Below are positions 25,494 through 61,056 of a stretch of 64,000 bases of DNA, piece after piece. Position 1 is the stretch's first letter, and each line of letters starts with the position of its first letter. Origin of the DNA: Paludibacteraceae bacterium (lineage in GTDB: Bacteria > Bacteroidota > Bacteroidia > Bacteroidales > Paludibacteraceae); assembly GCA_017962005.1 (NCBI GenBank), contig JAGCWE010000131.1:10068-74067 (forward strand), given 5' to 3'. Position numbers and translations under genes: made by a program. The notes beneath the pieces were generated by a model. The model ran no database searches. It was not told where the DNA came from and saw only the letters and a program-made list of their open reading frames with translations.

Positions 25494-25518
25494 TACCGCC
25501 TCCGAAACGGAAGCGGTA

Positions 25519-25628
25519 CGGTCAGAATACGGAAACAGCGCGGTCAGAATACGGAAGCGGTACGGTCAGGGTACGGAAACGGTACGGTCAGAACACGGAT
25601 ACAGCGCGGTCAGAACTCTTTCGGCTTG
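25519..25628. repeat. Five tandem 22-nt units (CGGTCAGAATACGGAAnnnGCG family)
   Basis: CGGTCAG recurs at 25519, 25541, 25563, 25585 and 25607, exactly 22 nt apart. The last unit contains the stop codon (25610-25612) of the AddB-like gene. Confidence 0.85.
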
Positions 25629-44639: not shown

Positions 44640-44850
44640 CCTCTTACCCTTCTCCTTCTCTCGTCTTTCCTTTCTCGGCATGTCTTCGGTTTCTTGTCTT
44701 TTTTCGCCTTATTCTTATCTTCATCTCGTCCTTCTTTTCCCGTTATCTCGTCCCTCTTTTCCTGTTATCTTGTCCTTCTTTTTTTCTTTCTCTTGCCATT
44801 CTTTTTTCCTCCTCTTCTCGCTCTTTTCAGCATCTTCTTGCGTAACATAC
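44640..44850. repeat. Polypyrimidine (plus-strand T/C) tract with 22-nt periodicity
   Basis: TCG(T/C)CC-type unit starts recur at 44704, 44726, 44748 and 44770, with degenerate copies either side. There is almost no purine, so all three plus frames stay open. Confidence 0.75.
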
Positions 44851-44851
44851 A

Positions 44852-44941
44852 CGATAGATATACGTTAGATACACGTTAGATATACGATAGATATACGTTA
44901 GATACACGATAGATATACGTTAGATAAACGATGGATTAAGC
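44852..44941. repeat. Array of 11-mers CGATAGATATA / CGTTAGATA(T/C)A, inverted copy of the 25395-25493 array
   Basis: The reverse complement reads CGCTTAATCCATCG-TTTATCTAACG-TATATCTATCG-TGTATCTAACG... This is the same leader and the same 11-mer family as at 25381. Confidence 0.9.
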
Positions 44942-45035: not shown

Positions 45036-45062
45036 CGCGTTTGATTGATTGTGTTCTGTAAG

Positions 45063-46256: not shown

Positions 46257-47419
46257 GTTATCCGCTTCTTCCATATTCGCAGTTGGTGTTCGATTTGCTC
46301 AGGACCAATCCGGACGTGTACTGGACTTGTTTCTGTATGCGGCTGGATAAGAAGAAGGTGGATGTCGGGCGCTTGAAGCGGGCGATGGAACAGGCCATTC
46401 GGAATCATCCTGTTTTCTTTATGCGTGTGGACGGGAGCGGACAGCAGCGGTATGAACCCCGGCCCGATATGCTGCATGGTCAGTATTATTCGGTGGATTT
46501 TGTGGAAGACGGGCAGTTCGTGGATGTGCGTGTGAGAAAGAACCGCATATTGGGCGACGGGCGGAGCGATCGTCTTATTATGGAGGATGTGATGCGAGCG
46601 TATTGCAATTTGCCGCTGGAGCACGATGATTATCTGGATTATTTGCAGCGTGTTGAGCAGGAGAGGCAGTCTCCGCGTTATCAGCGGAACCGGCAATGGC
46701 TGGAATCGGAATATGGGCAGCTGTCTTGTCCTGTTCATCCGGTGACGGACGTACCGGTTGACATGGCGGATATGGAGGAAGAGGGCATGCTGACGGAAGA
46801 TTATAGCCCGATGCGGTCAGACTTGAACCGCTTGGGCGAAGAGCGGCTTGTTACATTGACGGCATTCTTCTCGCTTGCGTCCGCGTTGGCAATGATGGAG
46901 TATAACGACTGCAACGAAGCGGCATTGACGTGGGCGTATGAAGGTCGTGAGCGTCCCGAAGAGCAGCGCATCTTTGGAAGTCTGCACCGCGATATTCCCT
47001 TCCAAATCAAAAATTTGAAATCAGAAAAAATCGTACCCTTTAAGGGTAAAGAAATCAGAAATCAGAAATCGGATTTGATCCGACAGGCTCGTAATCAAAT
47101 CCGCTCCGGCATTGCGCATAGTGGTTATCCGTTTACGCTTGTTTGTCCGCATACGGATATTTGGAACTATGCGTTGAATGTGTTGGAGCAGTCTTCAATG
47201 CAGGCGAAGATGGCGGATGTGCCGTTCCCGTTCGAAGTGTATGAGCTGGAAGATGCGCCGCATGTGGCGTATTCGTTGATGGATGTGGAGATTTATAATG
47301 AAGAGCGGTTGCTGGTCATGTATCGCTATTCCGCTACGCATTACAAGGAATCGTCTGTCCGCCGCTTTGCGGCATTGGTGAGAAAATATGCCGGATGGCT
47401 ATTGGAAGATGAAGGATAA
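46253..47419 (+). CDS. Condensation-domain-fold protein with degenerate catalytic motif
   Basis: The GTG start overlaps the upstream stop (GTGA). The N-terminal half resembles an NRPS C-domain or PapA-type acyltransferase, but the HHxxxDG position reads NRILGDG. It contains a low-complexity insert, FQIKNLKSEKIVPFKGKEIRNQKSD. Confidence 0.4.
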   Translation: MSYPLLPYSQLVFDLLRTNPDVYWTCFCMRLDKKKVDVGRLKRAMEQAIRNHPVFFMRVDGSGQQRYEPRPDMLHGQYYSVDFVEDGQFVDVRVRKNRILGDGRSDRLIMEDVMRAYCNLPLEHDDYLDYLQRVEQERQSPRYQRNRQWLESEYGQLSCPVHPVTDVPVDMADMEEEGMLTEDYSPMRSDLNRLGEERLVTLTAFFSLASALAMMEYNDCNEAALTWAYEGRERPEEQRIFGSLHRDIPFQIKNLKSEKIVPFKGKEIRNQKSDLIRQARNQIRSGIAHSGYPFTLVCPHTDIWNYALNVLEQSSMQAKMADVPFPFEVYELEDAPHVAYSLMDVEIYNEERLLVMYRYSATHYKESSVRRFAALVRKYAGWLLEDEG

Positions 47420-48542
47420 AAGGGATATGGTGGAAATCTTGCGGCAGTTGCTGGCAGCCGATTCAGCCTTGCTGCAGCTTGCTGGGCAGTCGCTGGCGCA
47501 GGCGGCGCGGGCGAATCCGCACCTGCGCACCAATCCCGTGCGCTCGTTGGATGACTGGTTCGCTTATCTGGAGCGTTTCCTGCATCGGATGCCTTGGCAG
47601 ACGATGGATATAGGTGAAGACGCCTCCTTCTTCCGCCGCATAGACCAGAATATAGGCTATTTCTATTTCCTCATCGACCAGCCCCTCGATGCCCTCAGGA
47701 ACTGCGGTTATATCTGGCCTTCGTTGCAATACGAACCGCGCATTGCGGCATGGCTTGTGGACTACAACAAGGCTTGGGGCGAATGGCTGGGTGGTGCGGA
47801 TAGTTGGAATGATGAATATTACCGGTTGGCGCGTACGGACAGCCGCTTTGAATTGGATACCGACCGCTATGAGTCACCCGATAACTGGCACTCATGGAAT
47901 GATTTCTTTGCCCGCAGACTGCGCCTTCCCCCTTTCAATTTTCCACTTTCCACTTTCCACTTTCCGCTTTCCACTTTCCACTTGACCGCTCCTTGCGACG
48001 GTGTACTGATGAACTATCCTGTGAAGACAATGAGTACGGATCATCTGCAGGACTTGTTGGGCGGCAGCCCCTGTGCGGAGAGGTTTGAAGGAGGAGAGGC
48101 GGTGCATATAGTGCTTGATGTCTTCGACTATCATCGTTTCCATGCGCCGTGTGCGGGCAGGGTGGTGGAGCGGAAGATTATACCTGGTATCCATGCCGGC
48201 GGCGGAGTCATTATCTGGGATGAGGCGGAAGGACGCTACCGCTATGAGCAGTGTGGTGCCACGGACTTCCAATCGCTTGAGACCCGCGGAGTGCTGGTGT
48301 TGGATACACCCGGCTTCGGTCACATTGCGCTTGTCGCCGTAGGTGTCCAGCAGGTCAGTTCGGTTGTCTGGTCCTCCAATCTTCAATCTTCAATCATAAA
48401 TCATAAATCCCCAATCCGTCTCTCGCAGGGAGACGAGTTGGGGTCCTTCCTCTTCGGTGGCAGCGATATCGTTCTTCTCTTCGAACCGGGTAAGGCCCCG
48501 CGTATTACCGAGAAATCGGTTAAAGTAGGGGATATCTTATAA
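47409..48542 (+). CDS. Phosphatidylserine-decarboxylase-family (pyruvoyl-dependent) decarboxylase with long N-terminal extension
   Basis: PSD-family blocks are WNDFFARRL ... APCDG ... HRFHAP ... GDELGSFLFGGSDIVLLFE, with GGS at the self-cleavage position. The start is uncertain (47388, 47409 or 47427). Two heptamer tracts lie inside the gene. Confidence 0.7.
   Translation: MKDKRDMVEILRQLLAADSALLQLAGQSLAQAARANPHLRTNPVRSLDDWFAYLERFLHRMPWQTMDIGEDASFFRRIDQNIGYFYFLIDQPLDALRNCGYIWPSLQYEPRIAAWLVDYNKAWGEWLGGADSWNDEYYRLARTDSRFELDTDRYESPDNWHSWNDFFARRLRLPPFNFPLSTFHFPLSTFHLTAPCDGVLMNYPVKTMSTDHLQDLLGGSPCAERFEGGEAVHIVLDVFDYHRFHAPCAGRVVERKIIPGIHAGGGVIIWDEAEGRYRYEQCGATDFQSLETRGVLVLDTPGFGHIALVAVGVQQVSSVVWSSNLQSSIINHKSPIRLSQGDELGSFLFGGSDIVLLFEPGKAPRITEKSVKVGDIL
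47941..47982. repeat. Heptanucleotide tract (TTCCACT)x6, one variant unit, in frame within the decarboxylase gene
   Basis: TTCCACT x3, TTCCGCT, TTCCACT x2 make 42 nt and encode FPLSTFHFPLSTFH. Confidence 0.9.
48375..48416. repeat. Heptanucleotide-period tract (nnCAATC / nnAAATC x6) in frame within the decarboxylase gene
   Basis: TCCAATC TTCAATC TTCAATC ATAAATC ATAAATC CCCAATC, encoding SNLQSSIINHKSPI. Confidence 0.85.
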
Positions 48543-48592
48543 AAAATCGGATAAGTCCGCGATTTTTCTTGCATATATCATATTATTTGTAG

Positions 48593-48600
48593 TACTTTTG
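48593..48600 (+). promoter_or_regulatory. -7 promoter box TACTTTTG
   Basis: It lies 64 nt upstream of the ATG at 48664. Confidence 0.55.
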
Positions 48601-48663
48601 CAGCGAATTTTACGTAACGAACTTTTCGACACGACAAAAGTGTTACTGTAATTGGGTATTATT

Positions 48664-49800
48664 ATGACTATTAAAAACACCATTACAAACCCTTTCTCCA
48701 TATTGTCTTATTTAGGACCTGAATATTTTTGCGACCGTCAAAAGGAAACGCAAGATTTGAGAAATGCGTTGTATAATGGACGGAATGTGACTCTCTCTAG
48801 TCCGCGTAGAATGGGTAAAACTGGGTTGATACAACATCTCTTTCAGCAAATTCCGGCGAAAGAGGCCCACTGCTTTTATGTGGATCTCTATCATACCAAA
48901 AACATGTCAGACTTCACTAAAGCTTTTGCGGAGGCCGTTCTTTCACAGCGTATGACGCCGTTCATAGAGCGTGTCGGTAAAGAGATTATGCAATTCTTTG
49001 GATCTGTACGTCCTGTGTTTACACCTGATCCTATTACCGGTTCGATGCAATGTACGGTGGATATTCAACCGCGGAATGAAGAAATGACATTGCAACAAAT
49101 ATTCGCCTATCTGGAACAATCTAAACAGCGTTGTTATGTGGCTTTTGACGAGTTCCAGGAGATAGCAGATTACTCGGATGGAAAAGCTGAAGCCATATTA
49201 CGTACGTATATTCAACAGCTGAAAAATGTGCAGTTCATTTTTGCCGGAAGCAAAAGGCATATTATGACGCAGATGTTCTTGTCTCCCAAACGTCCATTTT
49301 TTCAAAGCACTCAATTAATGAGCATTGGTGCTATTGATGAAAAGCTTTATTATACCTTTGCTTCCAAACATTTTGAATTACATAATCAGCATATGGATGA
49401 GACAACTTTTCATGAATTATACTCCTTAGTTAACGGACATACATGGTATATGCAGGCGTTGCTGAATAAAATATATCAGAATGGCTCTATGGAAATCTCA
49501 AATGATGATATGCTTCTGGCGCTAAATCAGTGGATCGAGGAAAATACACCTGCATATCATACTTATTGCCGCTTAATCACTGATCGCCAATTTGATGTAA
49601 TGCGCGCGGTGGCAAAAGAAGGAGTTGTAACTGAACCCGGAAGCAGTGCATTCTTGCAGAAATATCACTTGGGTGCATACAGCACGGTGCGAAGCGCTAT
49701 CTTGGCACTTGATGAAAAAGAATTGCTCTATTGCGATACAGATGGTAACTATAGCGTCTATGATCGCTTTTTCGGTTTATGGCTACAGAGACAATACTGA
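48664..49800 (+). CDS. AAA ATPase (archaeal-ATPase / DUF234-type 'ATP-binding protein')
   Basis: Walker A reads SPRRMGKTGL and Walker B is VAFDEFQE. The C-terminal DUF234-like region contains YSVYDRFF. Confidence 0.65.
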   Translation: MTIKNTITNPFSILSYLGPEYFCDRQKETQDLRNALYNGRNVTLSSPRRMGKTGLIQHLFQQIPAKEAHCFYVDLYHTKNMSDFTKAFAEAVLSQRMTPFIERVGKEIMQFFGSVRPVFTPDPITGSMQCTVDIQPRNEEMTLQQIFAYLEQSKQRCYVAFDEFQEIADYSDGKAEAILRTYIQQLKNVQFIFAGSKRHIMTQMFLSPKRPFFQSTQLMSIGAIDEKLYYTFASKHFELHNQHMDETTFHELYSLVNGHTWYMQALLNKIYQNGSMEISNDDMLLALNQWIEENTPAYHTYCRLITDRQFDVMRAVAKEGVVTEPGSSAFLQKYHLGAYSTVRSAILALDEKELLYCDTDGNYSVYDRFFGLWLQRQY

Positions 49801-49820
49801 CCACTGATAACTGACCACTT

Positions 49821-50564
49821 ATGAAACGATATGCATTAGTGACTGGCGCAAGCCGGGGAATAGGAAGAGCCATTGCCGTTGAGTTGGCAAAGGACGGCTG
49901 TTCTATTCTGTTGAATTATAAATCCAATCACGCTGCGGCGGAAGAAACTCTGCGTCTCATTGAAGCAACTGGCGGCGAAGCGGAACTGATGCCCTTTGAT
50001 GTCAGTCAGCCTGATGCCGTCAATGCTGCCTTGGACAAATGGTTTTCAGCCCATCCGGATGAGTATATTGACGTGCTGGTGAACAACGCCGGTATCGTGG
50101 ATGACGAGATTATGCTCCTGATGGAGCCGGAGCAGTGGCATCGTGTCATTGATGTCAACCTCAACGGCTTCTTCTATTGCACCCGCCGCGTGATAGAGGG
50201 CATGGTGGAGAACCATCACGGACGTATCGTCAATATATCTTCTATAGCAGGACAAAAAGGTCATCCGGGGCAAGTAAATTATGCAGCAGCAAAGGCTTCT
50301 CTTATTGGCGCGACAAAAGCATTGGCAACGGAATTGGCGACTAAACAGGTGACAGTCAATGCTGTGTCACCGGGCTTGGTGGAAACGGATATGGCAGAAA
50401 AAGTTGCAGAATATTTACCGGAGCGTATGCGTGATATCAATAGCATCCCCATGCGCCGCCTCGGTAAACCGGAAGAAGTTGCATATCTTGTATCTTTCCT
50501 CTGTAGTAATCGCGCCGACTATATCTCCGGACAAGTAATCGGCATCAATGGTGCCGCATTATAA
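49821..50564 (+). CDS. fabG: 3-oxoacyl-ACP reductase (SDR family)
   Basis: Diagnostic motifs are TGASRGIGRAIA, NNAG, and the S...YAAAK catalytic triad. Confidence 0.85.
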   Translation: MKRYALVTGASRGIGRAIAVELAKDGCSILLNYKSNHAAAEETLRLIEATGGEAELMPFDVSQPDAVNAALDKWFSAHPDEYIDVLVNNAGIVDDEIMLLMEPEQWHRVIDVNLNGFFYCTRRVIEGMVENHHGRIVNISSIAGQKGHPGQVNYAAAKASLIGATKALATELATKQVTVNAVSPGLVETDMAEKVAEYLPERMRDINSIPMRRLGKPEEVAYLVSFLCSNRADYISGQVIGINGAAL

Positions 50565-50566
50565 AA

Positions 50567-50613
50567 GCTGAAAACTGACCACTGGCAACTGAATACTGAA
50601 AACTGACCACTTC
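50567..50613. repeat. Heptanucleotide-period intergenic spacer (ACTGAnn x7)
   Basis: GCTGAAA ACTGACC ACTGGCA ACTGAAT ACTGAAA ACTGACC ACTTCCA, immediately before the KS1 ATG. The related spacer ACTGACCACTGATAACTGACCACTT precedes fabG (49796-49820). Confidence 0.8.
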
Positions 50614-50615
50614 CA

Positions 50616-51836
50616 ATGAAACGCGTAGTAATAACAGGCATGGGCATCTGGTCTTGCATAGGGCAGGATCTGCAGACCGTCACTGAGAGCCTTCGGATGG
50701 GACGCTCAGGAATCGGCGTGCGCCCGGAACGCAGGGCATTGGGCTATCACTCCTTGTTGACGGGCATTGTGCCACGCCCGGATTTGAAACCTTTGTTGAA
50801 TCGTCGTCTGCGCAATACGCTCTCTGAAGAGGCGGAGTACGCATGTATGGCTGTGCGTGAAGCGCTGATGAATGCCTATTTGGATGAAGACTATCGTATG
50901 CAAAATGAGATAGGTGTCGTGTTTGGTAATGACACCTCCAATCAGTCTGTAGTGGATTCGTATGTGACCGCGAAAGAGGCAGGTGATACCTTTATTTTGG
51001 GCTCCGGTATGGCGTTTCAGGCACTCACCGGCAATGTGGCGATGAATATGGCGAATATCTTCCATCTGCGCGGAGCAAATTTTACGACGGCATCTGCATG
51101 CGCTTCCGGCGCACAGGCAATCGCTTTGGCGGCGATGCTCATCCAAACAGGGCAACAAGACATCGTGGTGGCTGGAGGTGCGCAGGAGACCAACGACAAG
51201 TCCATGATTGCTTTTGATGGAGTCAACACCTTGTCCAAGCGCAACGATGACCCGCAGCATGCCTCGCGTCCGTTCTGTAAACAGCGGGACGGACTGGTGC
51301 CGGGCGGAGGCGCGGCCGCGCTTGTCTTGGAGGAATATGAACACGCCGTTGCCCGTGGAGCGCATATCGTGGCGGAGATTGCGGGATATGGATTCTCGCA
51401 GAACCTGACTCCGCTTGGCCAGCCCTCTGCAGAAGGCGAATATGAAGCGATGGTACGCGCCTTGCGGAATGCTGGTCTGAATCCGCAAGATATAGATTAT
51501 GTCAATGCCCATGCCACTTCCACGATGGCAGGAGATATGGCGGAGGCCGAAGCCTTGACACGATTGTTTGGCAGGAAACCGTTTGTGTCCTCCACGAAGT
51601 CGATGACCGGACATGAATGTTGGATGGCGGGGGCGAGCGAGACGGTATACAGTGTTCTTATGATGCAGCATGACTTTATAGCCCTGAATATCAATATCGC
51701 CGAGTTGGACGATGCTGCCAAAGACCTCAGTATCGTTCGTGAGCCTTTGGAGGCAAAGATAAATATCGCTCTCTCCAATTCCTTTGGTTTCGGCGGTACG
51801 AATTTCACTTTGGTTTTTAAAAAGCCCAACGTCTGA
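50616..51836 (+). CDS. Beta-ketoacyl-ACP synthase (KS1), catalytic Cys-His-His intact
   Basis: Active-site Cys in TASACASGAQAI, first His in NAHATST, Lys in SSTKS, second His in TGHECWMAGA. The terminal block is FGFGGTN. Confidence 0.85.
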   Translation: MKRVVITGMGIWSCIGQDLQTVTESLRMGRSGIGVRPERRALGYHSLLTGIVPRPDLKPLLNRRLRNTLSEEAEYACMAVREALMNAYLDEDYRMQNEIGVVFGNDTSNQSVVDSYVTAKEAGDTFILGSGMAFQALTGNVAMNMANIFHLRGANFTTASACASGAQAIALAAMLIQTGQQDIVVAGGAQETNDKSMIAFDGVNTLSKRNDDPQHASRPFCKQRDGLVPGGGAAALVLEEYEHAVARGAHIVAEIAGYGFSQNLTPLGQPSAEGEYEAMVRALRNAGLNPQDIDYVNAHATSTMAGDMAEAEALTRLFGRKPFVSSTKSMTGHECWMAGASETVYSVLMMQHDFIALNINIAELDDAAKDLSIVREPLEAKINIALSNSFGFGGTNFTLVFKKPNV

Positions 51837-51868
51837 CAAAATAGTGGTCAAACCTCTAATATCTATAT

Positions 51869-52132
51869 ATGACAAAGCAAGAGATTATTGAAAAGACGAA
51901 TGCCTTTCTTGTTGAAGAATACGAGAAAGATCCGGCGTTGCTTGCACCAGAAGCGCGTTTCCGCGAAGATTTAGACTTGAACAGTCTGGACTACATGGAT
52001 TTGATGGTCACTGTCAAACGGGTCTTTGGGGTTATGCCTGCTCCGGCAGAGATGAACCTCGTGGTGACATTAGGTGATTTCTACAATTTCATCGAGCGCA
52101 AACTGTCTGAACTGCCCCCATCCAATGAGTGA
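51869..52132 (+). CDS. Acyl carrier protein (ACP1)
   Basis: 87 aa with the phosphopantetheine-site motif DLDLNSLDYMDL. Confidence 0.8.
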   Translation: MTKQEIIEKTNAFLVEEYEKDPALLAPEARFREDLDLNSLDYMDLMVTVKRVFGVMPAPAEMNLVVTLGDFYNFIERKLSELPPSNE

Positions 52133-53579
52133 CAATAACCGACATACAGCCTGTATCATTGGCGGCGGCATGAGTGGTTTGTTTACCGGTGCACTGCTTG
52201 CCAGGAACGGTTATAAAGTGACCGTTCTGGAGAAAAACCACATCATCGGCGGAGGACTGCAATCCTTCCGCCGTGGTGATGCGGTGTTCAATACCGGTAT
52301 GCAATCTTTTGCCGGATATATGCCCAATATGATTAGCCTTCAATTTTGCAAATATTGTAGGGTGGATGATTTACTTGATGTTATGCCGACAGACGAGAAC
52401 CAACAGGAAATAGTATGGGTGGATAATCAGACAAATTATCGTCTTCCCAAAGGACGAGAGGCATACCAATCTTATCTAATCAAAATGTTTCCGCAAGAGG
52501 AAAAGGGAATTGGAGATTTAATGGATGCCGTATTCTACATAGGTCATACGTATGATTACCTGTTTCTTAACCCAATTCGGCGTCATGAGGAAAACATCCC
52601 GTATGCCTATATGAATGCATATGATTTTATTCTGCAATATGTCCATAATGAGCAATTAATCTCTGTTTTTGAATATGTATCTTGGACTACGGGACCCAGT
52701 TTGAAAGCCATGCCTGCGTTAGAGTTCTGTATGATGCTTACATTGTATATAATTGGTTCTCATCGCTTTGTGGGGGGTACAAAACAAATGGTGGATGCAT
52801 TTTGTCATGTGATTGAAAAAACGGGAGGAAAGGTGTATAATGAAACGGAAGTTTGTAAAATAAATGTTGAGAATGGCCGTGTTGTAGAGCTTATTGATAC
52901 AAATGGTAAAAAATGGGGGAGTGATGTTTATGTTTGGGCTTGTACGCCTAAAATTTTATTAGATGCCTGCAATGCGCCTGTATTCAGACTTGCTATGACT
53001 CAAAGAGTCAGAGAGTTTGTCAATCCCTTTACAATGTATATTGTATTTTGTAAACTAAAGCCAAAAAGATTCCCTTTTATCAATAGTGCAGTTTATATGC
53101 CTCGTCCATCGGATAAATCATACCTTCCGCAATCAATAGTCCTTGTGACTTCCCCGCACAGAAATCAAAACCAATGGGCACAGACAGCAGAAATATATAT
53201 ACCGGCTTGTTATGAGGAGTTGGGCAAGTGGGAGAATACAAAAGTACAGGATCGCGGTAGATTCTATGAGGAACATAAGAATCAAGTTGCTCGGAAAGCT
53301 TTGGATATGGTCTCTAATTTCTATCCGGATATAACAGATGCCGTTATGGATATAAACGTAGCGTCAGCTTTAACTATACGGGATTATTATGGTAATCCTC
53401 ATGGCGCTACGTACGGACAGCAGGGATTGTACCTGCCAATAAAAACCAAGGTGGCAAACTTATTCATGACAGGTCAAGCAGTGCAAAATCAAGGAATAGC
53501 TGGTATCGCAACTGCTGCAACACTTACAGCGGAAACTATACTTGGGAAAAGTATAATAGATGAAATAGCAAAAGCATAA
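52125..53579 (+). CDS. FAD-dependent oxidoreductase of the phytoene-desaturase (CrtI-like) family
   Basis: I set the start at MSDNNRH (an 8-nt overlap with ACP1). The dinucleotide fold reads CIIGGGMSGLFTGALLARNGYKVTVLEKN. The TAATG stop/start overlaps KS2. Confidence 0.75.
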   Translation: MSDNNRHTACIIGGGMSGLFTGALLARNGYKVTVLEKNHIIGGGLQSFRRGDAVFNTGMQSFAGYMPNMISLQFCKYCRVDDLLDVMPTDENQQEIVWVDNQTNYRLPKGREAYQSYLIKMFPQEEKGIGDLMDAVFYIGHTYDYLFLNPIRRHEENIPYAYMNAYDFILQYVHNEQLISVFEYVSWTTGPSLKAMPALEFCMMLTLYIIGSHRFVGGTKQMVDAFCHVIEKTGGKVYNETEVCKINVENGRVVELIDTNGKKWGSDVYVWACTPKILLDACNAPVFRLAMTQRVREFVNPFTMYIVFCKLKPKRFPFINSAVYMPRPSDKSYLPQSIVLVTSPHRNQNQWAQTAEIYIPACYEELGKWENTKVQDRGRFYEEHKNQVARKALDMVSNFYPDITDAVMDINVASALTIRDYYGNPHGATYGQQGLYLPIKTKVANLFMTGQAVQNQGIAGIATAATLTAETILGKSIIDEIAKA

Positions 53580-54838
53580 TGAAACGCGTTGTCGTAACAG
53601 GAATGGGAATATGGTCATGTATTGGACAAGACCTGCAAACAGTAACTGAAAGCCTTCAACAAGGGGGGTCGGGAATTGTTTTCGACCCTAAACGTATTGA
53701 ATACGGTCTCCAATCCGGTTTGGTAGGCAATGTGCCTCATCCGGATTTGAAACCTTTGTTGCCCCGTAAATTTCGTGCTACGATGTCTGAAGATGCCGAA
53801 TATGCCTATATGGCTGCCTGTCAGGCATTCGGGCATGCGCATATTCAGAAAGATTATCTGTTGCACAATGATGTGGGTGTTCTATGGGGAAATGACAGCG
53901 GAACTTCCACTGTGGTTGCAGCGATGAATGCCATGAACCAACACCATGATTCGTTTATGATAGGACCTTCTTGCCTGTTCCAAGGTGGAGCGTCAAGTGT
54001 TGTGATGAATCTGAGTACCATTTTCCATTTGCGCGGATGTGGAATAACGACAGCCGCCGGGTGTGCCAGTTCTTCCCATGCAATAGGAATGGCTTTTGTT
54101 TTAATTCAGACCGGTAAGCAAGATGTGATATTGGTAGGTGGCTCCTCAGAACTTCATCCTCTAATGACGGCAACATTCGATGCAACCAATATATTGTCTC
54201 TCCGCAATGAAGAACCGACTCATGCTATGCGCCCGTATGATGCGGAGCGAGACGGTACGGTTTTCAGCGGAGGAGCTGCGGCTTTGGTGCTCGAAGAATA
54301 CGAACATGCCGTAGCACGCGGAGCAACCATACTCGCCGAAGTATGCGGCTATGGATTTTCATCGAATGGTATCGATGAAATCTCCATGCCATCCGCAGAT
54401 GCGGAATATATCGCCATGAAGCGTGCTATCGAAGATGCTGGAATGCAGCCCTCCGATATTGATTATGTCAATGCCCATGCCACTTCCACTATTGCTGGTG
54501 ATGCCGAGGAAGCTAAAGCCCTGACACGCCTGTTTGTGGAAGAGAATCAAATCATAAATCATCAATCTGCAATCATAAATAGGAAACCCTATGTTTCCTC
54601 CACCAAGTCCATAACCGGTCATGAGAACTGGATGGCGGGTGCCAGCGAGGCGGTGTATAGCGTTCTCATGATGCAAAACGGCTTTGTCGCACCCAATATC
54701 AATCTGGGGCACAAAATTGATGAAGCGAAGGATCTCAATATCGTCACAGAAACCGTCTATACCCCCATCAACACCGTCCTGTCCAACTCCTCCGGCATGG
54801 GGGGCACGAATAGCGCGCTTGTGTTTCGAAAAATATAG
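53579..54838 (+). CDS. Beta-ketoacyl-ACP synthase (KS2), carrying a 13-aa low-complexity insert
   Basis: Diagnostic motifs are AAGCASSSHAI, NAHATST and TGHENWMAGA. The insert VEENQIINHQSAIIN lies between LTRLF and RKPYVSSTKS, relative to KS1. Confidence 0.85.
   Translation: MKRVVVTGMGIWSCIGQDLQTVTESLQQGGSGIVFDPKRIEYGLQSGLVGNVPHPDLKPLLPRKFRATMSEDAEYAYMAACQAFGHAHIQKDYLLHNDVGVLWGNDSGTSTVVAAMNAMNQHHDSFMIGPSCLFQGGASSVVMNLSTIFHLRGCGITTAAGCASSSHAIGMAFVLIQTGKQDVILVGGSSELHPLMTATFDATNILSLRNEEPTHAMRPYDAERDGTVFSGGAAALVLEEYEHAVARGATILAEVCGYGFSSNGIDEISMPSADAEYIAMKRAIEDAGMQPSDIDYVNAHATSTIAGDAEEAKALTRLFVEENQIINHQSAIINRKPYVSSTKSITGHENWMAGASEAVYSVLMMQNGFVAPNINLGHKIDEAKDLNIVTETVYTPINTVLSNSSGMGGTNSALVFRKI
54550..54584. 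repeat. Heptanucleotide-period tract (AATCnnn) inside KS2
   Basis: AATC recurs at 54550, 54557, 54564 and 54571. The tract lies in a 92-nt block (54515-54606) identical to 57105-57196 in KS4. Confidence 0.85.
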
Positions 54839-54931
54839 CCCATCTGGAATATATAGAGCATATGGAAAGCAGATTGAATCTAAAAAACAAATCCTAAAAA
54901 ACAATTGACAACGGATAACGTACAAATTTCA

Positions 54932-56161
54932 ATGAGGCGTGTCGTCGTAACAGGTATGGGTATTTGGTCTTGCATTGGGCAGGACTTGCAAACCGTGACA
55001 GAGAGTCTTAAGCAAGGTCGTTCCGGAGTCATCTTTGATCCGAAACGTGTTGAGTATGGTCTTCATTCCGGTCTTGTAGGCAATGTGCCCCGTCCGGATT
55101 TGAAGCCTTTGCTACCTCGCAAGTTCCGCGCAACGATGTCCGAAGATGCAGAATATGCTTACATGGCTGCGTGTCAAGCACTGGAAAAATCCGGTATAAC
55201 CGATGAATATTTGCGTCAAAATGAGGTGGGGCTGATATTTGGGAGTGAAGGCGCAACAGATTGCATTGTACAAGCAGCGGACATAATGGCGCAGGAGAAG
55301 GAGGTTACAGCATTACAGCCAAATATGTTGTTCCAAAGCGAAGCATCCTCTGTCTCGATGAATTTGAGTACGATTTTTCACATAAAAGGAATCAACTTGA
55401 CCATTAGTGCTGCATGTGCAAGTTCTTCGCATGCGATTGGTTTGGCGACGACGTTGATAAGAGATGGTATGCAGGATAGTATTCTTGTCGGAGGCTGTTG
55501 TATGTTGTCTGAAGTAAGCGCACCTGTTTACGATGCTATTAATGGCTTATCCAGAAGGAACGATAGTCCGCATAAGGCTTCCTGTCCTTTCGATGAGGCA
55601 CGTGATGGTATCGTCCATTCCGGAGGAGCAGCTGCTTTGATGCTTGAGGATTATGAGCATGCGATTGAGAGAGGAGCCGATATATTTGCAGAAATTGTAG
55701 GAATAGGAGTATGTAGCAATGGAGATGAAATCTCTGCCCCTACCACGATGAAAGTGGATGTGGCTATGCAGCGGGCAATAGCAGATGCCGGAATAGAGGC
55801 AGGTGATTTGGATTATATATGTCCAATGGCAGCTTCGTTAATCAATGAGGATGAGTATGAGGCGATAGCGATTGACAGACTGTTCCGGGATAAAAAGGCG
55901 TATGTCTCATCTACCGAATCTATGACCGGACATGAGAATTTCATGGCAGGTGCGTCTAAAACGGTATATACTATATTGATGATGCTGAATAATTTCATAG
56001 CGCCCAATATCAATTTGAAGACACCTTCTGAAGCGGCAAAAAATCTCCGGATCGCAAAGCAAACAATCCAAACTCCGATTCAATATGCAATGATTAATGC
56101 ATCTGGATTGGGAGGAACCAATTGCTGTATTGTAGTTAAAAATTATTCGAAAAGTAGTTGA
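54932..56161 (+). CDS. Ketosynthase-like protein (KS3) with degenerate catalytic His and Lys (CLF-like partner?)
   Basis: The Cys is retained (SAACASSSHAI). The first His block NAHATST is replaced by CPMAASL, and SSTKS by SSTES. The second His is retained (TGHENFMAGA). Confidence 0.75.
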   Translation: MRRVVVTGMGIWSCIGQDLQTVTESLKQGRSGVIFDPKRVEYGLHSGLVGNVPRPDLKPLLPRKFRATMSEDAEYAYMAACQALEKSGITDEYLRQNEVGLIFGSEGATDCIVQAADIMAQEKEVTALQPNMLFQSEASSVSMNLSTIFHIKGINLTISAACASSSHAIGLATTLIRDGMQDSILVGGCCMLSEVSAPVYDAINGLSRRNDSPHKASCPFDEARDGIVHSGGAAALMLEDYEHAIERGADIFAEIVGIGVCSNGDEISAPTTMKVDVAMQRAIADAGIEAGDLDYICPMAASLINEDEYEAIAIDRLFRDKKAYVSSTESMTGHENFMAGASKTVYTILMMLNNFIAPNINLKTPSEAAKNLRIAKQTIQTPIQYAMINASGLGGTNCCIVVKNYSKSS

Positions 56162-56165
56162 GACT

Positions 56166-57428
56166 ATGCGTAGGAGAGTTGTCGTCACAGGAATCGGGAT
56201 CTGGTCGAGTATCGGACAGAATCTTCAAACTGTCAGCGAGAGCCTTAAACAAGGGCGTTCCGGAATTGTTTTTGATTCGGAACGGATTGACTACGGCATG
56301 CGTACCGCGCTAATAGGAAATGTTCCTCTGGCTGATTTGAAACCATTATTACCGCATAGCCAAAGAGCTACCATGACTGAAGATGCGTGCTATGCGTATA
56401 TGGCCGCTCGTCAAGCATTTGAACAAGCGCGAATGGATGATGCATTTTTGCGAACAAACGAAGTGGGAGTCATCTTCGGAAATGATGGTAATTCCAGTGG
56501 TACAGAAGTGTCACCTGTTATGCGAAAGGAGAAAGACTCGGAAATGGTGGGTCCCTATTTATTATTTGCGGATCACACCTCATCACCGGTATTTCATTTA
56601 AGTTCCTTGTTTCATTTGAGAGGTGTAAGTTATAGTGTGGATGCAGCATGTTCTTCATCATCTCATGCAATAGGAATCGCCTCTGTTCTGATTCGTAACG
56701 GGATACAATCTACGATATTGGTAGGAGGCTCTATGGAGGTACATAGATTGCCTTTCTTTGCGGAGATGGATGTTGCAGATATGCTGTCTCGTCGTAATGA
56801 AGAACCGGAAAAAGCATCTCGCCCATTCGACCAAGATCGAGATGGTATGGTTCCTTCTGGTGGCGCAGCAGCTTTAGTTTTAGAAGAATACGAGCATGCC
56901 GTAGCACGCGGCGCAACTATTTTGGCGGAAGTGGCAGGCTACGGCTTCTCCTCCAACGGTATAGAAGAAATATCCATGCCTTCCGCCGATGCGGAGTTCA
57001 TCGCCATGAAACGTGCTATCGCAGATGCCGGACTGCAACCTTCTGACGTCGACTACGTCAACGCCCATGCCACTTCCACTCTCGCGGGCGACATCGAGGA
57101 AGCCAAAGCCCTGACACGCCTGTTTGTGGAAGAGAATCAAATCATAAATCATCAATCTGCAATCATAAATAGGAAACCCTATGTTTCCTCCACCAAATCC
57201 ATGACAGGCCATGAAAACTGGATGGCGGGTGCCAGCGAGGCGGTATATAGTATTCTCATGATGCAAAACAATTTTGTCGCACCCAATATTAATCTCGAAA
57301 ACGTCATCGACGAAGCCAAAGACCTCAATATCGTCCGCAAGACGGTCTATACCCCCGTCCGTACCGTTCTTTCCAACTCCTCCGGCATGGGAGGTACCAA
57401 TAGCGCGTTGGTTTTTAGAAAAATATAA
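56166..57428 (+). CDS. Beta-ketoacyl-ACP synthase (KS4), same 13-aa insert as KS2
   Basis: Diagnostic motifs are DAACSSSSHAI, NAHATST and TGHENWMAGA. The C-terminal half is highly similar to KS2, including VEENQIINHQSAIIN. Confidence 0.85.
   Translation: MRRRVVVTGIGIWSSIGQNLQTVSESLKQGRSGIVFDSERIDYGMRTALIGNVPLADLKPLLPHSQRATMTEDACYAYMAARQAFEQARMDDAFLRTNEVGVIFGNDGNSSGTEVSPVMRKEKDSEMVGPYLLFADHTSSPVFHLSSLFHLRGVSYSVDAACSSSSHAIGIASVLIRNGIQSTILVGGSMEVHRLPFFAEMDVADMLSRRNEEPEKASRPFDQDRDGMVPSGGAAALVLEEYEHAVARGATILAEVAGYGFSSNGIEEISMPSADAEFIAMKRAIADAGLQPSDVDYVNAHATSTLAGDIEEAKALTRLFVEENQIINHQSAIINRKPYVSSTKSMTGHENWMAGASEAVYSILMMQNNFVAPNINLENVIDEAKDLNIVRKTVYTPVRTVLSNSSGMGGTNSALVFRKI
57140..57174. repeat. 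Heptanucleotide-period tract inside KS4 (copy of the KS2 tract)
   Basis: It has the same sequence as 54550-54584. Confidence 0.85.
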
Positions 57429-57484
57429 CGTCTAACCTCTAACCTCTAACAACAAAGTGGTCTGACATCTAACTTCTTATTTAT

Positions 57485-57727
57485 ATGGATACGCAAGAAA
57501 TTCAATCAAAGGTAAATGCCTTTATGAACAATCGTCTGGAGTATGATGCAGAACGCCTCACTCCTGAAACAGAATTGAAACGCGACCTTGGCATGACGTC
57601 TCTCGATGCTGTGGAGACCTCTCTTTTCATTAAGCGCACCTTCGGCTTTCAGCCGGAACGTGGTGTGATGAAGACCATAGGAACGCTCCAGGATCTGTAT
57701 GATTACATCGAAGATCATCAAGGATGA
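57485..57727 (+). CDS. Acyl carrier protein (ACP2)
   Basis: 80 aa with the motif DLGMTSLDAVE. Confidence 0.8.
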   Translation: MDTQEIQSKVNAFMNNRLEYDAERLTPETELKRDLGMTSLDAVETSLFIKRTFGFQPERGVMKTIGTLQDLYDYIEDHQG

Positions 57728-57845
57728 TAGTGTATGGTGTGCATGTTTCCGAAAAATACGGAAAGATTTTTGAATTATTTCCGCGAAACAATGACAATTT
57801 TTGAAAAGTCATAGTAAAATATTTGGATATATTCCTGAAGAGTTG

Positions 57846-57853
57846 TAATTTTG
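57846..57853 (+). promoter_or_regulatory. -7 promoter box TAATTTTG for the AbiE module
   Basis: It lies 27 nt upstream of the ATG at 57880. Confidence 0.55.
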
Positions 57854-57879
57854 CAGCGTTTTTGGAATGAAACGCAGAA

Positions 57880-58500
57880 ATGACATACACACAATTCTAT
57901 AATCAATGGCACTCGTTAGGTTGTTTTTCGGTAAACCAAGTGCATGCTATCGTACCGACTTTCAATAGGTCGAACCTTCACCAATGGCAGAAAGCCGGAT
58001 ACATCGTTCCTCTTCGGAAAGGATGGTATGCATTTGCCGATTATGTGCAACAGCCGGATTATGCTCGGTATTTTGCAGGTAAGATATGCGCTCCGTCGTA
58101 CATCAGTCTGCATACTGCATTATCTTTCTATGGTATAATTCCGGAGGCTGTGGTAGAGATAACGAGCGTGACGACGCAAAAGACGTGCCGATACAAGAAC
58201 GCGTTTGGCCAGTTCAGTTATCAGACGGTTCGTCCGCGGTTATTCTGGGGCTTTGAACCTAAGACGATGCGGGATGGAAAGCAATATATGATGGCTACAC
58301 CGGAGAAGGCGATTATCGACTTGCTGTACCTCTATCCACAATATGCGACAGTAGAAGAGATGCGGGAGTTGCGGTTGGATGAGGAATGGATGCAGGAAGA
58401 GTTTGACAAAGAGCGGTTGATGAGTTATGTGGAGCGGATAGGAAGTCCGATAATAAAGAAAAAAGTGCGTTTGCTTTTAAATGCGTACGAAATTAGATAA
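57880..58500 (+). CDS. AbiEi-family type IV antitoxin / transcriptional regulator
   Basis: The N-terminal wHTH-like AbiEi_4-type region reads FSVNQVHAIVPTFNRSNLHQWQKAGYIVPLRKGWYAF. A cognate AbiEii gene follows. Confidence 0.75.
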   Translation: MTYTQFYNQWHSLGCFSVNQVHAIVPTFNRSNLHQWQKAGYIVPLRKGWYAFADYVQQPDYARYFAGKICAPSYISLHTALSFYGIIPEAVVEITSVTTQKTCRYKNAFGQFSYQTVRPRLFWGFEPKTMRDGKQYMMATPEKAIIDLLYLYPQYATVEEMRELRLDEEWMQEEFDKERLMSYVERIGSPIIKKKVRLLLNAYEIR

Positions 58501-58528
58501 ACGAATAGCTCATTGCTGAAAACAGAAC

Positions 58529-59311
58529 ATGATTGACATGGAATACATACGGGGATTTTACCCCCCGTACATTGCCCTGAATGCAAACATGCAGAAGCAT
58601 ATGCTGAAGGAGTATGTGGAGTTGTTGGCGCTGGAGTGGATAACCCGTTCTCCGTATGCGGCGAAATTGGTGTTCATCGGAGGTACGAACTTGCGGTTGA
58701 TACAGGGTATTGACCGGTTCTCAGAGGACTTGGATTTTGATTGCAAAGGGCTGAGCGAGGAAGAGTTCCGGCGGATGTCGGATGAGTTGGTGAAATACCT
58801 GCAACAGCATGGATTGAACGCAGAGTTGCGCAACAAGGAGAATACGCGGTTGATGGCATTTCGCAGCAATGTGTATTTCCCGGAACTGCTGTTTGACTTG
58901 CAACTAACCGGTCATCGGGAGGAACGTTTTCTGATGAAGATAGAGGCGCAGGATCAAAGAACGGATTATCCTCGTGAGATGGCTATTATGCAGCGGAACG
59001 GGTTCTCGTTCCCGGTGCCGGTGCCACCGTTGAGCGTACTGCTATCGATGAAACTATGTGCACTACTGGCGCGGCAGAAAGGAAGGGATTTCTATGACAC
59101 GATGTTTCTGATGCAGCGGACAGAGCCGGATTATGGCTTCTTGCTGAATCAGAAGGGGATTGCGAACAAGGAGCAATTGGATGCTGCCCTACGGGAGATG
59201 GTAAGCAAGACCGATATGAAGACCAAACAGCGCGACTTTGAGCACTTGCTGTTCGATAGCCGCAAGAGCGAGACGATACTGGAATTTATTAGACTGACCT
59301 CTGTCATATGA
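58529..59311 (+). CDS. AbiEii/AbiGii-family nucleotidyltransferase toxin
   Basis: NTase motifs are FIGGTNLRLIQGIDRFSEDLDFDC. It is 260 aa. Its stop overlaps the ACP3 start (ATGA). Confidence 0.8.
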   Translation: MIDMEYIRGFYPPYIALNANMQKHMLKEYVELLALEWITRSPYAAKLVFIGGTNLRLIQGIDRFSEDLDFDCKGLSEEEFRRMSDELVKYLQQHGLNAELRNKENTRLMAFRSNVYFPELLFDLQLTGHREERFLMKIEAQDQRTDYPREMAIMQRNGFSFPVPVPPLSVLLSMKLCALLARQKGRDFYDTMFLMQRTEPDYGFLLNQKGIANKEQLDAALREMVSKTDMKTKQRDFEHLLFDSRKSETILEFIRLTSVI

Positions 59312-59556
59312 CAAAGCAAGAAATAATACAACAGACCAACGCGTTTTTCAGCGACAGACTGGATTCTGACATGTCGCATGTCACTCCGGATACGGAACTC
59401 AAACATGATTTGGGAATCACCAGTGTCGATGCCGTAGCCATCGCCTCTTTTGCACAAAAATCTTTCGGCTGTCCCGTCATCATGTCCGAAATCAAAGCCA
59501 TCATCACAATGGATGATCTCTACAACTATATTGAGAAGAATGGTAAATTATCTTGA
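59308..59556 (+). CDS. Acyl carrier protein (ACP3)
   Basis: 82 aa with the motif DLGITSVDAVA. The 5' end (ATATGACAAAGCAAGA...) resembles that of ACP1. Confidence 0.8.
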   Translation: MTKQEIIQQTNAFFSDRLDSDMSHVTPDTELKHDLGITSVDAVAIASFAQKSFGCPVIMSEIKAIITMDDLYNYIEKNGKLS

Positions 59557-60952
59557 CATCCTTGCTGAAACTATCCGCAATAACTGGGATCAGCCTGCCC
59601 TTACGGATTTCTACCTCACCGAAGACGGTAAGGCTCAAGACACCTCACGCGGTAACCGTTACACCTACGGCGAGATGTATGCAGAGATTGTCCGCGTCGC
59701 CGATTTTCTCACACAACTTGGTTTGCAAGCCGGCGACCATATTGCTATTTGCGGCGCCAATTCTGCCCACTGGGTTATTTCCTACCTCGCCATCGCCAAG
59801 ATGCAAGATGTGTCTGTCGCCATCATGCATACCCTTCAACCGGATCAGATTGCGCAGATGATCAATTTCTCCGATGCCAAAGCGTTGTTTATAGATAAGG
59901 AATTATGGGAAGAATTAAAACAACAATCGTTGCCAAGGGTGGCGAGTGTGATTGCGTTGGAAGATTGGATTGTACTATACGGGCATCGAATAAGAATAAA
60001 TGACAATAATCAATTAACAATTAACAATGACCAATGCCAATTCATCCATGGTGAACTTGACGAATTGGCAATGCTCTGTTTCACCTCTGGTTCATCAGGA
60101 AAACCGAAAGGGGTGATGCTGTCATATAGGAATATTCATTCATCAGTACGTTGCGTTGGAGATACATATCCTGTCAATAAGAACAGAAACACTTTAGCGT
60201 TAATTTCTTTGTCACATCTTTTAGGTTTTGGTAGTACTTTGGTACAACTAACCAAGTGTTGTCATATATTTATTCTTCGGCAGTCAAATGATTTTGTCCG
60301 TTTGCCTCAAATCATATGGATAGTGCAACCTTATGTGTTATTCGGAGTTCCTCAATTATTAGCAATAGCTGCTAAAATGTGGAATCAGAAAAAAATGTTA
60401 TTTTTGGAGAGTTTTGTTGTAGGTGGTGCTGTTGTCTCTGATGTGCTGTGCCGCCAACTAAAGGAGGTGGCGTTCCCATTAGCGACAGGATATGGGGCTA
60501 CAGAATCAAGTGGAACAATCAGTCTTGCATCTGCTCTCTCTTTTCGAGAAGAGTCTTCTGGGAAAGTCGTTGAAGGTTGTAGTGTTAGCATCGCTCCTAA
60601 CGGTGAAATTCTTGTCAAAGGTGAAAATGTCATGTTGGGCTATTATAAAGATCCAGAAGCGACGGCGCAAAAGATAGACAAGGACGGTTGGCTCCATACT
60701 GGCGATAAGGGACATCTGGACGAGGATGGCTATCTCTATGTGGAAGGTCGTTTGGAGCAGGACATCATCGTTCTTCCCAACGGCGAGAACATCCGTCCGG
60801 ATGCTATTGAATCCCTCATCAATGCGCTGCCTGAGGTCTCCGACTCCATCGTCTTCGCCCGTGATGGTCACCTCATCGCAATAGTCGTACCACCAATCAC
60901 CAATCACCAATCACCAATGCGGATTTACGCCGCAGCATATTGCGTGCGATAA
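59540..60952 (+). CDS. AMP-dependent synthetase/ligase (acyl-ACP or acyl-CoA ligase-like); reading frame leaves the conserved C-terminus at a (CACCAAT)4 tract
   Basis: ANL motifs are FTSGSSGKPKGV, GYGATESSG and GWLHTGDKGHLDEDGYLYVEGR. I set the start at MVNYLDIL. After the tract the frame gives PMRIYAAAYCVR-stop, while the conserved tail lies in another frame. Confidence 0.75.
   Translation: MVNYLDILAETIRNNWDQPALTDFYLTEDGKAQDTSRGNRYTYGEMYAEIVRVADFLTQLGLQAGDHIAICGANSAHWVISYLAIAKMQDVSVAIMHTLQPDQIAQMINFSDAKALFIDKELWEELKQQSLPRVASVIALEDWIVLYGHRIRINDNNQLTINNDQCQFIHGELDELAMLCFTSGSSGKPKGVMLSYRNIHSSVRCVGDTYPVNKNRNTLALISLSHLLGFGSTLVQLTKCCHIFILRQSNDFVRLPQIIWIVQPYVLFGVPQLLAIAAKMWNQKKMLFLESFVVGGAVVSDVLCRQLKEVAFPLATGYGATESSGTISLASALSFREESSGKVVEGCSVSIAPNGEILVKGENVMLGYYKDPEATAQKIDKDGWLHTGDKGHLDEDGYLYVEGRLEQDIIVLPNGENIRPDAIESLINALPEVSDSIVFARDGHLIAIVVPPITNHQSPMRIYAAAYCVR
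59988..60044. repeat. Heptanucleotide-period tract (CAATnnn x~8) in frame inside the ligase gene
   Basis: CAAT recurs at 60004, 60011, 60018, 60025 and 60032. The tract encodes RINDNNQLTINNDQCQ. Confidence 0.8.
60891..60918. repeat. Perfect heptanucleotide repeat (CACCAAT)x4
   Basis: Four perfect units of 28 nt, which is not a multiple of 3. The tract sits exactly where the ligase frame and the conserved C-terminal frame diverge. Confidence 0.95.
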
Positions 60953-61056
60953 ATCCGCAACTCCCTCTTTTCTCCCAGCTCTATGATGTGGAAATCACGG
61001 ATATCCCGCTACAAAGAACCGAAAAACAAACCCTCAAGAGGTATCTCTATAAATAA
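60916..61056 (+). other. Out-of-frame 3' segment encoding the conserved ligase C-terminus
   Basis: The alternative frame reads NADLRRSILRAINPQLPLFSQLYDVEITDIPLQRTEKQTLKRYLYK-stop. This is the expected ANL C-terminal subdomain ending, including the conserved Lys-containing T-x-K-x-x-x-K-R block. Confidence 0.7.

Follow-up and report, generated by a model that had tools for sequence, protein, structure and literature searches.

The element analyzed here is a heptanucleotide repeat, (CACCAAT)4, that throws the gene of an AMP-dependent ligase of the ANL superfamily out of frame in a Paludibacteraceae bacterium of the rumen. The gene belongs to a 64,000-nucleotide stretch of DNA (GenBank assembly GCA_017962005.1, contig JAGCWE010000131.1, positions 10,068 to 74,067 of the forward strand), which is called the window in the following and whose numbering is used throughout. 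The window probably carries the OFF allele of a slippage-prone heptanucleotide tract in a ligase that is associated with an acyl carrier protein (ACP). Orthologous genes are read through the same site in frame, most of them with five units, and at least three other lineages have independently lost one unit, which amounts to at least four losses when the window is counted. A sequence-only reading of the window had drawn attention to the perfect four-unit repeat with a stop 11 codons further on, to an ANL-like C-terminus in the neighboring frame and to a candidate slipped-strand phase switch.

The tract and the stop behind it were borne out by Tandem Repeats Finder (TRF) and by direct reading of the sequence (Table 1). 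The open reading frame (ORF) of the ligase uses frame 2 (mod 3). ATG 59540 is its most likely start codon, because the database protein P0001 ('MAG: AMP-binding protein [Paludibacteraceae bacterium]', MAG standing for metagenome-assembled genome), with which the 470-aa product is identical, begins there. The frame passes through the four units, which code for PITNHQSP in a linker of the C-terminal subdomain, and ends at TAA 60950-60952 after the 11 codons MRIYAAAYCVR. Past the tract, frame 1 reads NADLRRSILRAINPQLPLFSQLYDVEITDIPLQRTEKQTLKRYLYK, i.e. NADLRR...KRYLYK, up to a TAA at 61054-61056. In silico rebuilds with one to seven units revealed that the two frames are fused by 2 or 5 units only, while 1, 3, 4, 6 and 7 units truncate the product, in agreement with the frame arithmetic of the earlier reading (5 or 2 units fuse, 3 or 4 truncate). 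A tblastn search with an orthologue from a bovine metagenome (L087) produced two high-scoring segment pairs (HSPs) in different frames that overlap at 60892-60919. By our calculation, with a match probability of ~0.26, 21 consecutive lag-7 self-matches are expected by chance ~3e-8 times in 64 kb. As in simple sequence repeat (SSR) loci, the intragenic unit of 7 nt is not a multiple of three, and the copy number of four passes the candidate cut-off of PhasomeIt (at least three copies for units of 6-9 nt; PMC5953494). As it stands, the ORF ends at 60952 with an incomplete C-terminal subdomain, and P0001 carries PF00501 only.

The sequence-only reading was also right in taking the out-of-frame tail for the ANL C-terminal subdomain. 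In the frame-restored protein, PF00501 covers residues 14-369 (E = 6.6e-57) and PF23562 (AMP-binding_C_3) crosses the junction, matching residues 408-503 with 31.9 bits against a cut-off of 20.8. The restored ligase aligns end to end with 88 orthologues, the comparison by which the earlier reading had suggested that its claim be checked, and possesses a complete C-terminal subdomain. Its tail is 81% identical to that of the L087 ligase (tblastn). Across the resulting alignment of 89 sequences, N474, P475, L477-L479, S481-D485, E487, P492, T496, K498, T500 and K502-Y506 are invariant, and the out-of-frame tail of the window keeps every one of these residues. In the invariant P492-x5-K498, the residues are spaced as in the ANL A10 motif PxxxxGK. 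K498 is therefore presumably the catalytic A10 lysine, an assignment made from motif spacing and family knowledge for a region that lies outside the alignments to PDB entries.

Single-sequence and profile searches matched the ligase to PDB entries of 4-coumarate-CoA ligase (4CL), luciferase and FadD13, with E = 1.8e-51 when the family profile was used; these alignments end at residues 440-478, short of K498. The profile fits 4-coumarate-CoA ligase 3a9u up to the helix after the tract, and the tract peptide would be located in the loop that connects a beta-strand to the final helix of the C-terminal subdomain. Compared with the solved ANL enzymes 3a9u, FadD13 (3r44) and acyl-ACP synthetase (8hsy), the N-terminal domain and the first half of the C-terminal subdomain can be aligned at ~25-30% identity, whereas the last ~30 residues are unalignable by sequence; unlike these enzymes, the ligase family has its own Pfam C-terminal model, PF23562. 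An AlphaFold2 model of the repaired protein, built from the 89 sequences, reached a mean pLDDT of 62 with values below 50 in the C-terminal subdomain, and was left unused.

Orthologues show which state of the tract is the original one. In a protein search with a query that lacked the tail, 119 of the 120 best clusters were full-length. Orthologues with 60-67% overall identity read QITNHQSPITN(T/A)DLRR, which corresponds to five units (16 aligned proteins). JGI metagenomes were scanned at the DNA level with a pattern built around the invariant VLPNGENIRP motif, which made the scan blind to the state of the tract. It found 26 orthologous loci, and all 28 loci, including L087 and L090, are in frame at the tract. 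A profile scan of genome contigs returned paralogues of ~30% identity, with L007 as the only orthologue among the matches listed; tblastn reads its ligase in a single frame, so that 29 orthologous DNA loci are in frame. This comparison of orthologous loci, also proposed by the sequence-only reading, establishes five units as the in-frame state in use. It follows from the full-length clusters that the frameshift is derived, and from the five-unit orthologues that the window has lost one unit.

The linker itself varies in kind. A heptamer-type linker occurs in 56 of the 88 orthologues, 41 of which share the identical length. P0054, P0060 and P0182 do without any linker, which indicates that the peptide is dispensable, and in other orthologues it is substituted by 9-nt Ser-rich arrays or GC-rich hairpin-type inserts. 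Inserts replace the heptamers at site ~456 in L093, L094, L100, L101, L103, L104, L108 and L112, and at site ~155 in L117 and L119. They include GC-rich in-frame inverted repeats, e.g. CCCTTCCC..GGGAGGG and CCTCTTCCCTATAGGGAGGAG, at the linker sites of some orthologues, and 9-nt TCTAGTGNN arrays of variable length, coding for Ser-rich linkers, at those of others. The linker positions of the ligase give the impression of preferred places for the insertion of small repeats or hairpins. L117 also has a frameshift, which is a 1-nt deletion in a GGG run and has nothing to do with the heptamers.

Evidence for repeated loss of a unit came from comparing, by reading their sequences, the members of 90%-identity orthologue clusters, namely those of P0007 and P0059. 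In the P0007 cluster, P0142 (507 aa, found on 78 contigs) is ON and reads ..QITNHKSQITNTDLRR, while P0147 and P0152 (470 aa), in the P0142 background, read ..QITNHKSQIRIYGARYCER followed by a stop; P0154 (498 aa) is frameshifted at the tract in another background. In the corresponding DNA, the ON loci L128-L130 carry (CAAATCA)x4+CAAAT. The OFF loci L126, L131 and L132, from three samples, have one unit fewer, (CAAATCA)x3+CAAAT, and L127 is OFF on an independent haplotype, CAAATCA CCAATCA CAAATCA CAAAT. Differences at the far end of the locus aside, L126 and L128 are distinguished over ~13 kb by one single nucleotide polymorphism (SNP) and the 7-nt indel. The P0059 cluster repeats this picture: P0176/L133 is OFF, L134-L136 are ON, and the difference over 13.4 kb is one SNP and the 7-nt indel. 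Natural five-unit alleles measure 507-511 aa and natural four-unit alleles 469-498 aa, so that natural alleles and in silico rebuilds agree in a product toggled between full-length and truncated by the number of units. A single copy number fixed across related genomes, which the earlier reading had named as an observation that would contradict it, was looked for and is not what these lineages (L126-L136) display.

The window's own lineage behaves differently. All eight assemblies, i.e. the window, L006 and L120-L125 from at least seven samples, have four units, and the exact 470-aa product is present on several ENA assemblies (contig tags XIEF21, SAMN1583xxxx) and on one Logan assembly. Between the window and the other contigs of this lineage there are 0-12 substitutions or indels in stretches of up to 14 kb, and as contigs that differ in SNPs all have four units, the frameshift predates the small diversification of the lineage. 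The proposed slipped-strand switch is therefore upheld in part: unit losses in at least three other lineages and two near-isogenic ON/OFF pairs speak for it, and the invariance of the own lineage speaks against it. Apart from the general caution that a metagenome-assembled genome calls for, nothing suggests that the real genome has five units and that the missing unit is an artefact of assembly or sequencing. The four-unit sequence is identical in independent assemblies made from at least seven samples with several assemblers and with SNPs elsewhere, the 28-nt tract is far below read and k-mer lengths (k141 contigs), and equivalent alleles exist in other lineages and samples, which leaves an artefact with virtually no probability.

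Length variation within the lineage was observed at another array. The (TAACCTC)-type array listed in Table 1 starts at the stop codon of the ketosynthase (KS) gene 56166-57428, upstream of the ACP gene at 57485, and the window is one unit shorter there and has one SNP compared with all five same-lineage contigs that cover the site. This array is a true copy-number polymorphism within the population. In addition, L122 is without 37 nt at window positions 51838-51874, in a KS-ACP intergenic or ACP-start region, and the ACP-like ORF called there has 45 instead of 87 aa as a result.

At the ligase tract, the DNA is better preserved than its surroundings. Third codon positions of the window share an identity of 0.73-0.91 with those of six orthologues inside the tract, compared with 0.36-0.60 in the flanks, and the units are uniform within a lineage and differ between lineages (CCAATCA, CAAATCA, AAAATCA). 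Because the linker is dispensable and replaceable, this conservation is not owed to the peptide; the pattern looks like concerted evolution by slippage or like selection on the repeat DNA itself. A strong stem-loop (Table 1) begins at the last base of the tract, with z = -6.8 against 200 shuffles, and recurs in heptamer-type orthologues. Its covariation is no better than that of shuffled alignments and lends no support to selection on the structure, and the hairpin region has no match in Rfam. A terminator scan was empty, though a GCGCA-N6-TGCGC-TTTT hairpin follows the stop codon of the tail. Tracts (at 60918-60959, also at 47067-47080) tend to end in AAAT(N)CGGATTT, where GGATTT in the flank complements the AAATC core of the unit; in the ligase, it also complements a downstream TAAATCC, which gives the hairpin of -24.8 kcal/mol. 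Judging from these complementarities, pairing of the flank with alternative units could favor misalignment.

The position of the stem-loop raises the question of whether the four-unit allele might still yield a full-length enzyme by a hairpin-stimulated -1 (or +2) ribosomal frameshift or hop. A stable structure that abuts the tract (-24.8 kcal/mol, z = -6.8), an intact tail and an array that encodes one peptide in all three frames, so that a shift would be nearly silent, are what such recoding would be expected to display. Neither in nor before the tract, however, is there an X XXY YYZ slippery heptamer or a homopolymer run as found at -1 frameshift sites. The other orthologues are simply in frame, so that a frameshift is not conserved, and the hairpin lies in conserved coding sequence without significant covariation and without an Rfam match. 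Recoding is accordingly very improbable.

If the window does carry an OFF allele of a slippage-prone tract, the working state would be a five-unit tract that codes for the dispensable surface linker QITNHQSPITN before the last helix. When one 7-nt unit is lost, most likely because the strands misalign in replication, the frame shifts and the enzyme ends 11 codons on, without its last ~45 residues including the invariant P-x5-K motif with K498. From what is known of the family, the truncated protein should be unable to adenylate its acid. The adjacent ACP would then stay unloaded and the product of the Lnb/condensation/decarboxylase/KS island would not be made, whereas regain of one unit would be expected to restore the gene. 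The recurrent independent losses and the differences between near-identical strains mark the tract as a hypermutable ON/OFF site of the SSR contingency type. That it is a phase switch in the strict sense, i.e. one that operates frequently, reversibly and within a clone, is what we infer from this.

Several observations weigh against the tract being such a switch. With 4-5 units it is short compared with the 8-38 units of proven heptanucleotide loci (PMC2651432), and switching rates may hence be modest. The own lineage is without unit-number polymorphism at the tract (8/8 OFF), and a collection of 15 billion proteins contains no ON allele of it. Only losses were seen: no orthologue has a 6-unit OFF or a 2- or 8-unit ON allele, and no OFF-to-ON event was detected among the consensus assemblies compared. 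OFF alleles are rare in the best-sampled lineage, with 4 OFF contigs in its 90% cluster against 78 for the commonest ON allele alone, and as the near-isogenic pairs were found via the OFF state, they overestimate the rate of unit loss in relation to that of point substitution. Finally, ~36% of the orthologues have linkers that are immune to slippage frameshifts (9-nt arrays, hairpin-type inserts or none), so that a switch is not a conserved requirement of the family.

It is conceivable that these features reflect one-way, recurrent loss at a fragile spot in a tolerant linker, and that the window allele is a young pseudogene which drifted or was selected to fixation with no evolved switching behind it. 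The uniformly OFF lineage, the restriction to deletions, the shortness of the tract and the scarcity of OFF alleles in the P0142 lineage fit this explanation, as do the lack of in-frame 2- or 8-unit variants, a five-unit length that is frozen in 41 of 56 heptamer-type orthologues, and the degenerate units of many orthologues. It has to accommodate, on the other hand, that the tail and the remaining genes of the island are intact, so that any inactivation must be recent, and that the tract DNA, uniform within lineages, is better conserved than the synonymous background, which needs ongoing slippage or selection on the repeat. Most lineages retain the frameshift-prone form although the linker is dispensable and alternatives exist, and an ~18-fold enrichment of period-7 arrays at fixed coding sites is hard to reach without out-of-frame intermediates. 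One-way loss is thus a serious alternative but clearly the less likely one, and an OFF allele at a slippage-prone site is preferred.

Table 1. Coordinates of the tract, the ligase and associated features in the window.
Feature	Position	Strand	Evidence or measure
(CACCAAT)x4, perfect heptanucleotide tract	60891..60918	+	TRF: period 7, 4.0 copies; sequence reading agrees
AMP-dependent (ANL) ligase ORF, truncated, 470 aa, probable OFF allele	59540..60952	+	identical to P0001; PF00501 E = 6.6e-57
Out-of-frame remainder of ligase, 46 codons + stop, conserved A9/A10 region with K498	60916..61056	+	tblastn, PF23562, alignment
Strong stem-loop at 3' end of tract, GCGGATTTACG..CGATAAATCCGC	60918..60959	+	minimum free energy -24.8 kcal/mol
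Second period-7 array in ligase, ACAATTA-like, ~3.7-4.7 units, in frame, variable site at residue ~155-160	60004..60036	+	
ACP gene directly upstream of ligase	59308..59556	+	NCBIfam ACP models, E ~1e-9
(TAACCTC)-type heptamer array, polymorphic in lineage	57424..57450	+	contig comparison
Gene island containing ligase, rich in period-7 arrays	45045..61056	+	

The general mechanism, an SSR contingency locus, is known; new are the Bacteroidota host and the enzyme of a lipid pathway. Known examples are the intragenic heptanucleotide tracts of Haemophilus influenzae, such as (AATTTTG)14 in hmw1A and (AACAACC)n in the gene of an HI1369-like TonB-dependent channel (PMC2651432), and similar 7-nt tracts (CATTTCT) occur in Neisseria (PMC5953494). 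The ligase tract shares with them a 7-nt unit within an ORF, a product that is truncated by a change in unit number, and different numbers in close strains. In Haemophilus and Neisseria, the tracts comprise 8-38 units, the genes are those of surface adhesins or receptors of Proteobacteria, and for some of them reversible switching has been measured, whereas the ligase tract has 4-5 units, five in ON alleles, is part of the gene for a cytoplasmic ANL ligase in a Bacteroidota MAG and exhibits losses only. A parallel for the toggling of a metabolic enzyme, not a surface antigen, by repeat indels is the glpK gene of Mycobacterium tuberculosis, whose homopolymer tract undergoes reversible frameshifts (cited in PMC11868660). 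The glpK tract differs from that of the ligase in being a homopolymer, in phylum and in pathway, and its reversibility has been demonstrated by experiment.

In Bacteroides, phase variation is known from invertible promoters and shufflons (PMC11868660). This review gives only invertase-mediated systems for the genus, and SSR-type cases in Bacteroidales were not searched for further. The inversion systems of Bacteroidales resemble the ligase locus in the ON/OFF heterogeneity of accessory, probably envelope-related loci, but they depend on site-specific recombinases and not on a frameshifting tandem repeat. The present findings suggest that, beside recombinase inversion, Bacteroidota of rumen and gut have a second way of becoming heterogeneous, one based on mutation, with ON and OFF alleles of a biosynthetic loading enzyme caught in near-identical wild strains. 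Comparing the members of 90%-identity clusters was sufficient to find them, and metagenome collections can expose such switches in this way. The product of the island appears to be conditionally dispensable, and in annotation the ligase gene should not be discarded as a plain pseudogene.

The ligase is the last gene of an island that comprises, in order, genes for a Lnb-like protein, a condensation-domain protein, a phosphatidylserine (PS)-decarboxylase-like protein, an AAA ATPase, FabG, a KS, a short ACP-like ORF, an FAD oxidase, three more KS, an ACP, AbiEi/AbiEii, a second ACP and the ligase. With 17 nt in common, the end of the upstream ACP gene and the start of the ligase gene overlap, and the ACP-ligase pair is kept in those orthologous loci whose sequence covers the upstream region. 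From this gene order, the ACP is presumed to be the acceptor of the ligase product and the ligase to act as ACP loader. In relatives, the core cassette consists of the Lnb-like, condensation-domain, PS-decarboxylase-like, ACP and ligase genes and adjoins HipBA modules and proteins of 2000-3000 aa, some with Flg_new domains. A connection to surface traits may be suspected from these large neighbors in relatives and from the Lnb-like protein of the island, Lnb being the lipoprotein N-acyltransferase of Bacteroides (PMC11573676).

Compared with this core, the cassette of the window carries an 11-kb insert with the AAA ATPase, FabG, four KS, the FAD oxidase, ACPs and AbiEi/AbiEii. The idea that the additional KS genes make the ligase redundant was ruled out: FabG and/or KS are found upstream in at least 12 orthologous loci, 11 of which have an intact ligase, the other being L117 with its unrelated 1-nt deletion. 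The ligase is the only out-of-frame gene in the island of the window. The Lnb-like, condensation, decarboxylase and ACP genes each give one in-frame HSP with their orthologues, and each KS, FabG and FAD-oxidase gene is a single uninterrupted ORF. PADLOC recognized AbiEi/AbiEii strongly and the AAA ATPase and HipA weakly, with no match for the cassette enzymes. As an insertion, the AbiEi/AbiEii toxin-antitoxin pair (57880-59311) separates an ACP gene from the ACP-ligase pair. Its AbiEi shares 93% identity with that of L090, well above the 45-70% of the neighboring cassette genes, which marks the pair as a module that is mobile between islands.

Ligases of this family have a mosaic sequence. Orthologues are ~85-95% identical over ~200 N-terminal and ~150 C-terminal residues, whereas the middle (residues ~200-350, window ~60140-60590) is hypervariable with ~30% identity, a pattern suggestive of diversifying selection or of cassette-like recombination where the substrate is bound. 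At the second array site of the ligase, around residue 155, orthologues have other heptamer arrays, or a GC-rich hairpin in L117 and L119.

Heptamer arrays are a property of the whole island. All six period-7 arrays with at least three copies in the window are located within its 16 kb, and periods of 5, 6 and 8-12 occur 0-2 times each. In the 29 orthologous loci, period-7 density is 0.76/kb in the cassette and 0.34/kb in the flanks versus 0.043/kb in 1.4 Mb of other Bacteroidales DNA; the island is ~18-fold enriched in such arrays. The arrays occupy six fixed sites, namely the N-terminus and residue ~260 of the condensation protein, residues ~170 and ~315 of the decarboxylase and residues ~155 and ~456 of the ligase, with units that vary by lineage. 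In the window, the genes for the condensation, PS-decarboxylase-like, KS and ligase proteins contain in-frame period-7 arrays at 47048-47074, 47933-47984, 48373-48410, 54549-54580, 57139-57170 and 60004-60036. Units of these arrays have little G in the coding strand, and AAATC or CAATC is frequent in them (window, L087, L090, L093-L119). An all-against-all comparison of the JGI loci included too few close pairs to reveal polymorphism of the arrays. Two of the four KS genes (54245-54837 versus 56835-57428) share a ~83%-identical 3' segment with an identical AAATCAT-type array that encodes IINHQSAIIN, which points to a recent duplication or gene conversion between the paralogues.

It is tempting to regard the island of rumen Bacteroidales as a multi-site heptanucleotide 'phasome', composed of the six coding sites and of arrays in front of start codons. 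The arrays, whose units turn over between lineages, would be kept for their mutability, and stochastic, reversible frameshifts would switch individual reactions of a pathway that makes lipids or decorates lipoproteins and serves giant surface proteins. This broader idea is speculative and rather unlikely; if true, it would establish an SSR-based contingency system in an order for which the review cited describes invertase-driven systems only (PMC11868660).

Further heptamer arrays lie just upstream of start codons: (CTGACAA-like)x6.3 at 50568-50611 before the KS gene at 50616 in the window, (ATAACTG)x3.9, i.e. TAACTGA repeats, at 9696-9722 of L087 before an ACP gene, and eight units of TACTGAA/TACTGAT at 4911-4967 of L129 before AbiEii. 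As short 7-nt arrays in front of starts, they resemble the TAACTGA direct repeats known from Beggiatoaceae, from Cyanobacteria and from a few Bacteroidetes (MacGregor 2015, PMC4679880). Those repeats are intergenic, contain stops and have been proposed as sites for a translational regulator (PMC4679880). The CACCAAT tract does not belong to this class, as it has another unit, is intragenic and acts by frameshift.

Other repeats of the window have longer units. Arrays of 11/22/33-nt units (ATCTATCGTAT / ATCTAACGTAT) at 25387-25616 and 44847-44936 bracket ~19 kb in opposite orientation, the former being followed by a 22-nt ACGGAAACGGTACGGTCAGAAT array. Two further repeats, a perfect 33-nt unit in 2.6 copies at 14441-14526 and a 117-nt unit in 1.8 copies at 14673-14883, are apparently intergenic.

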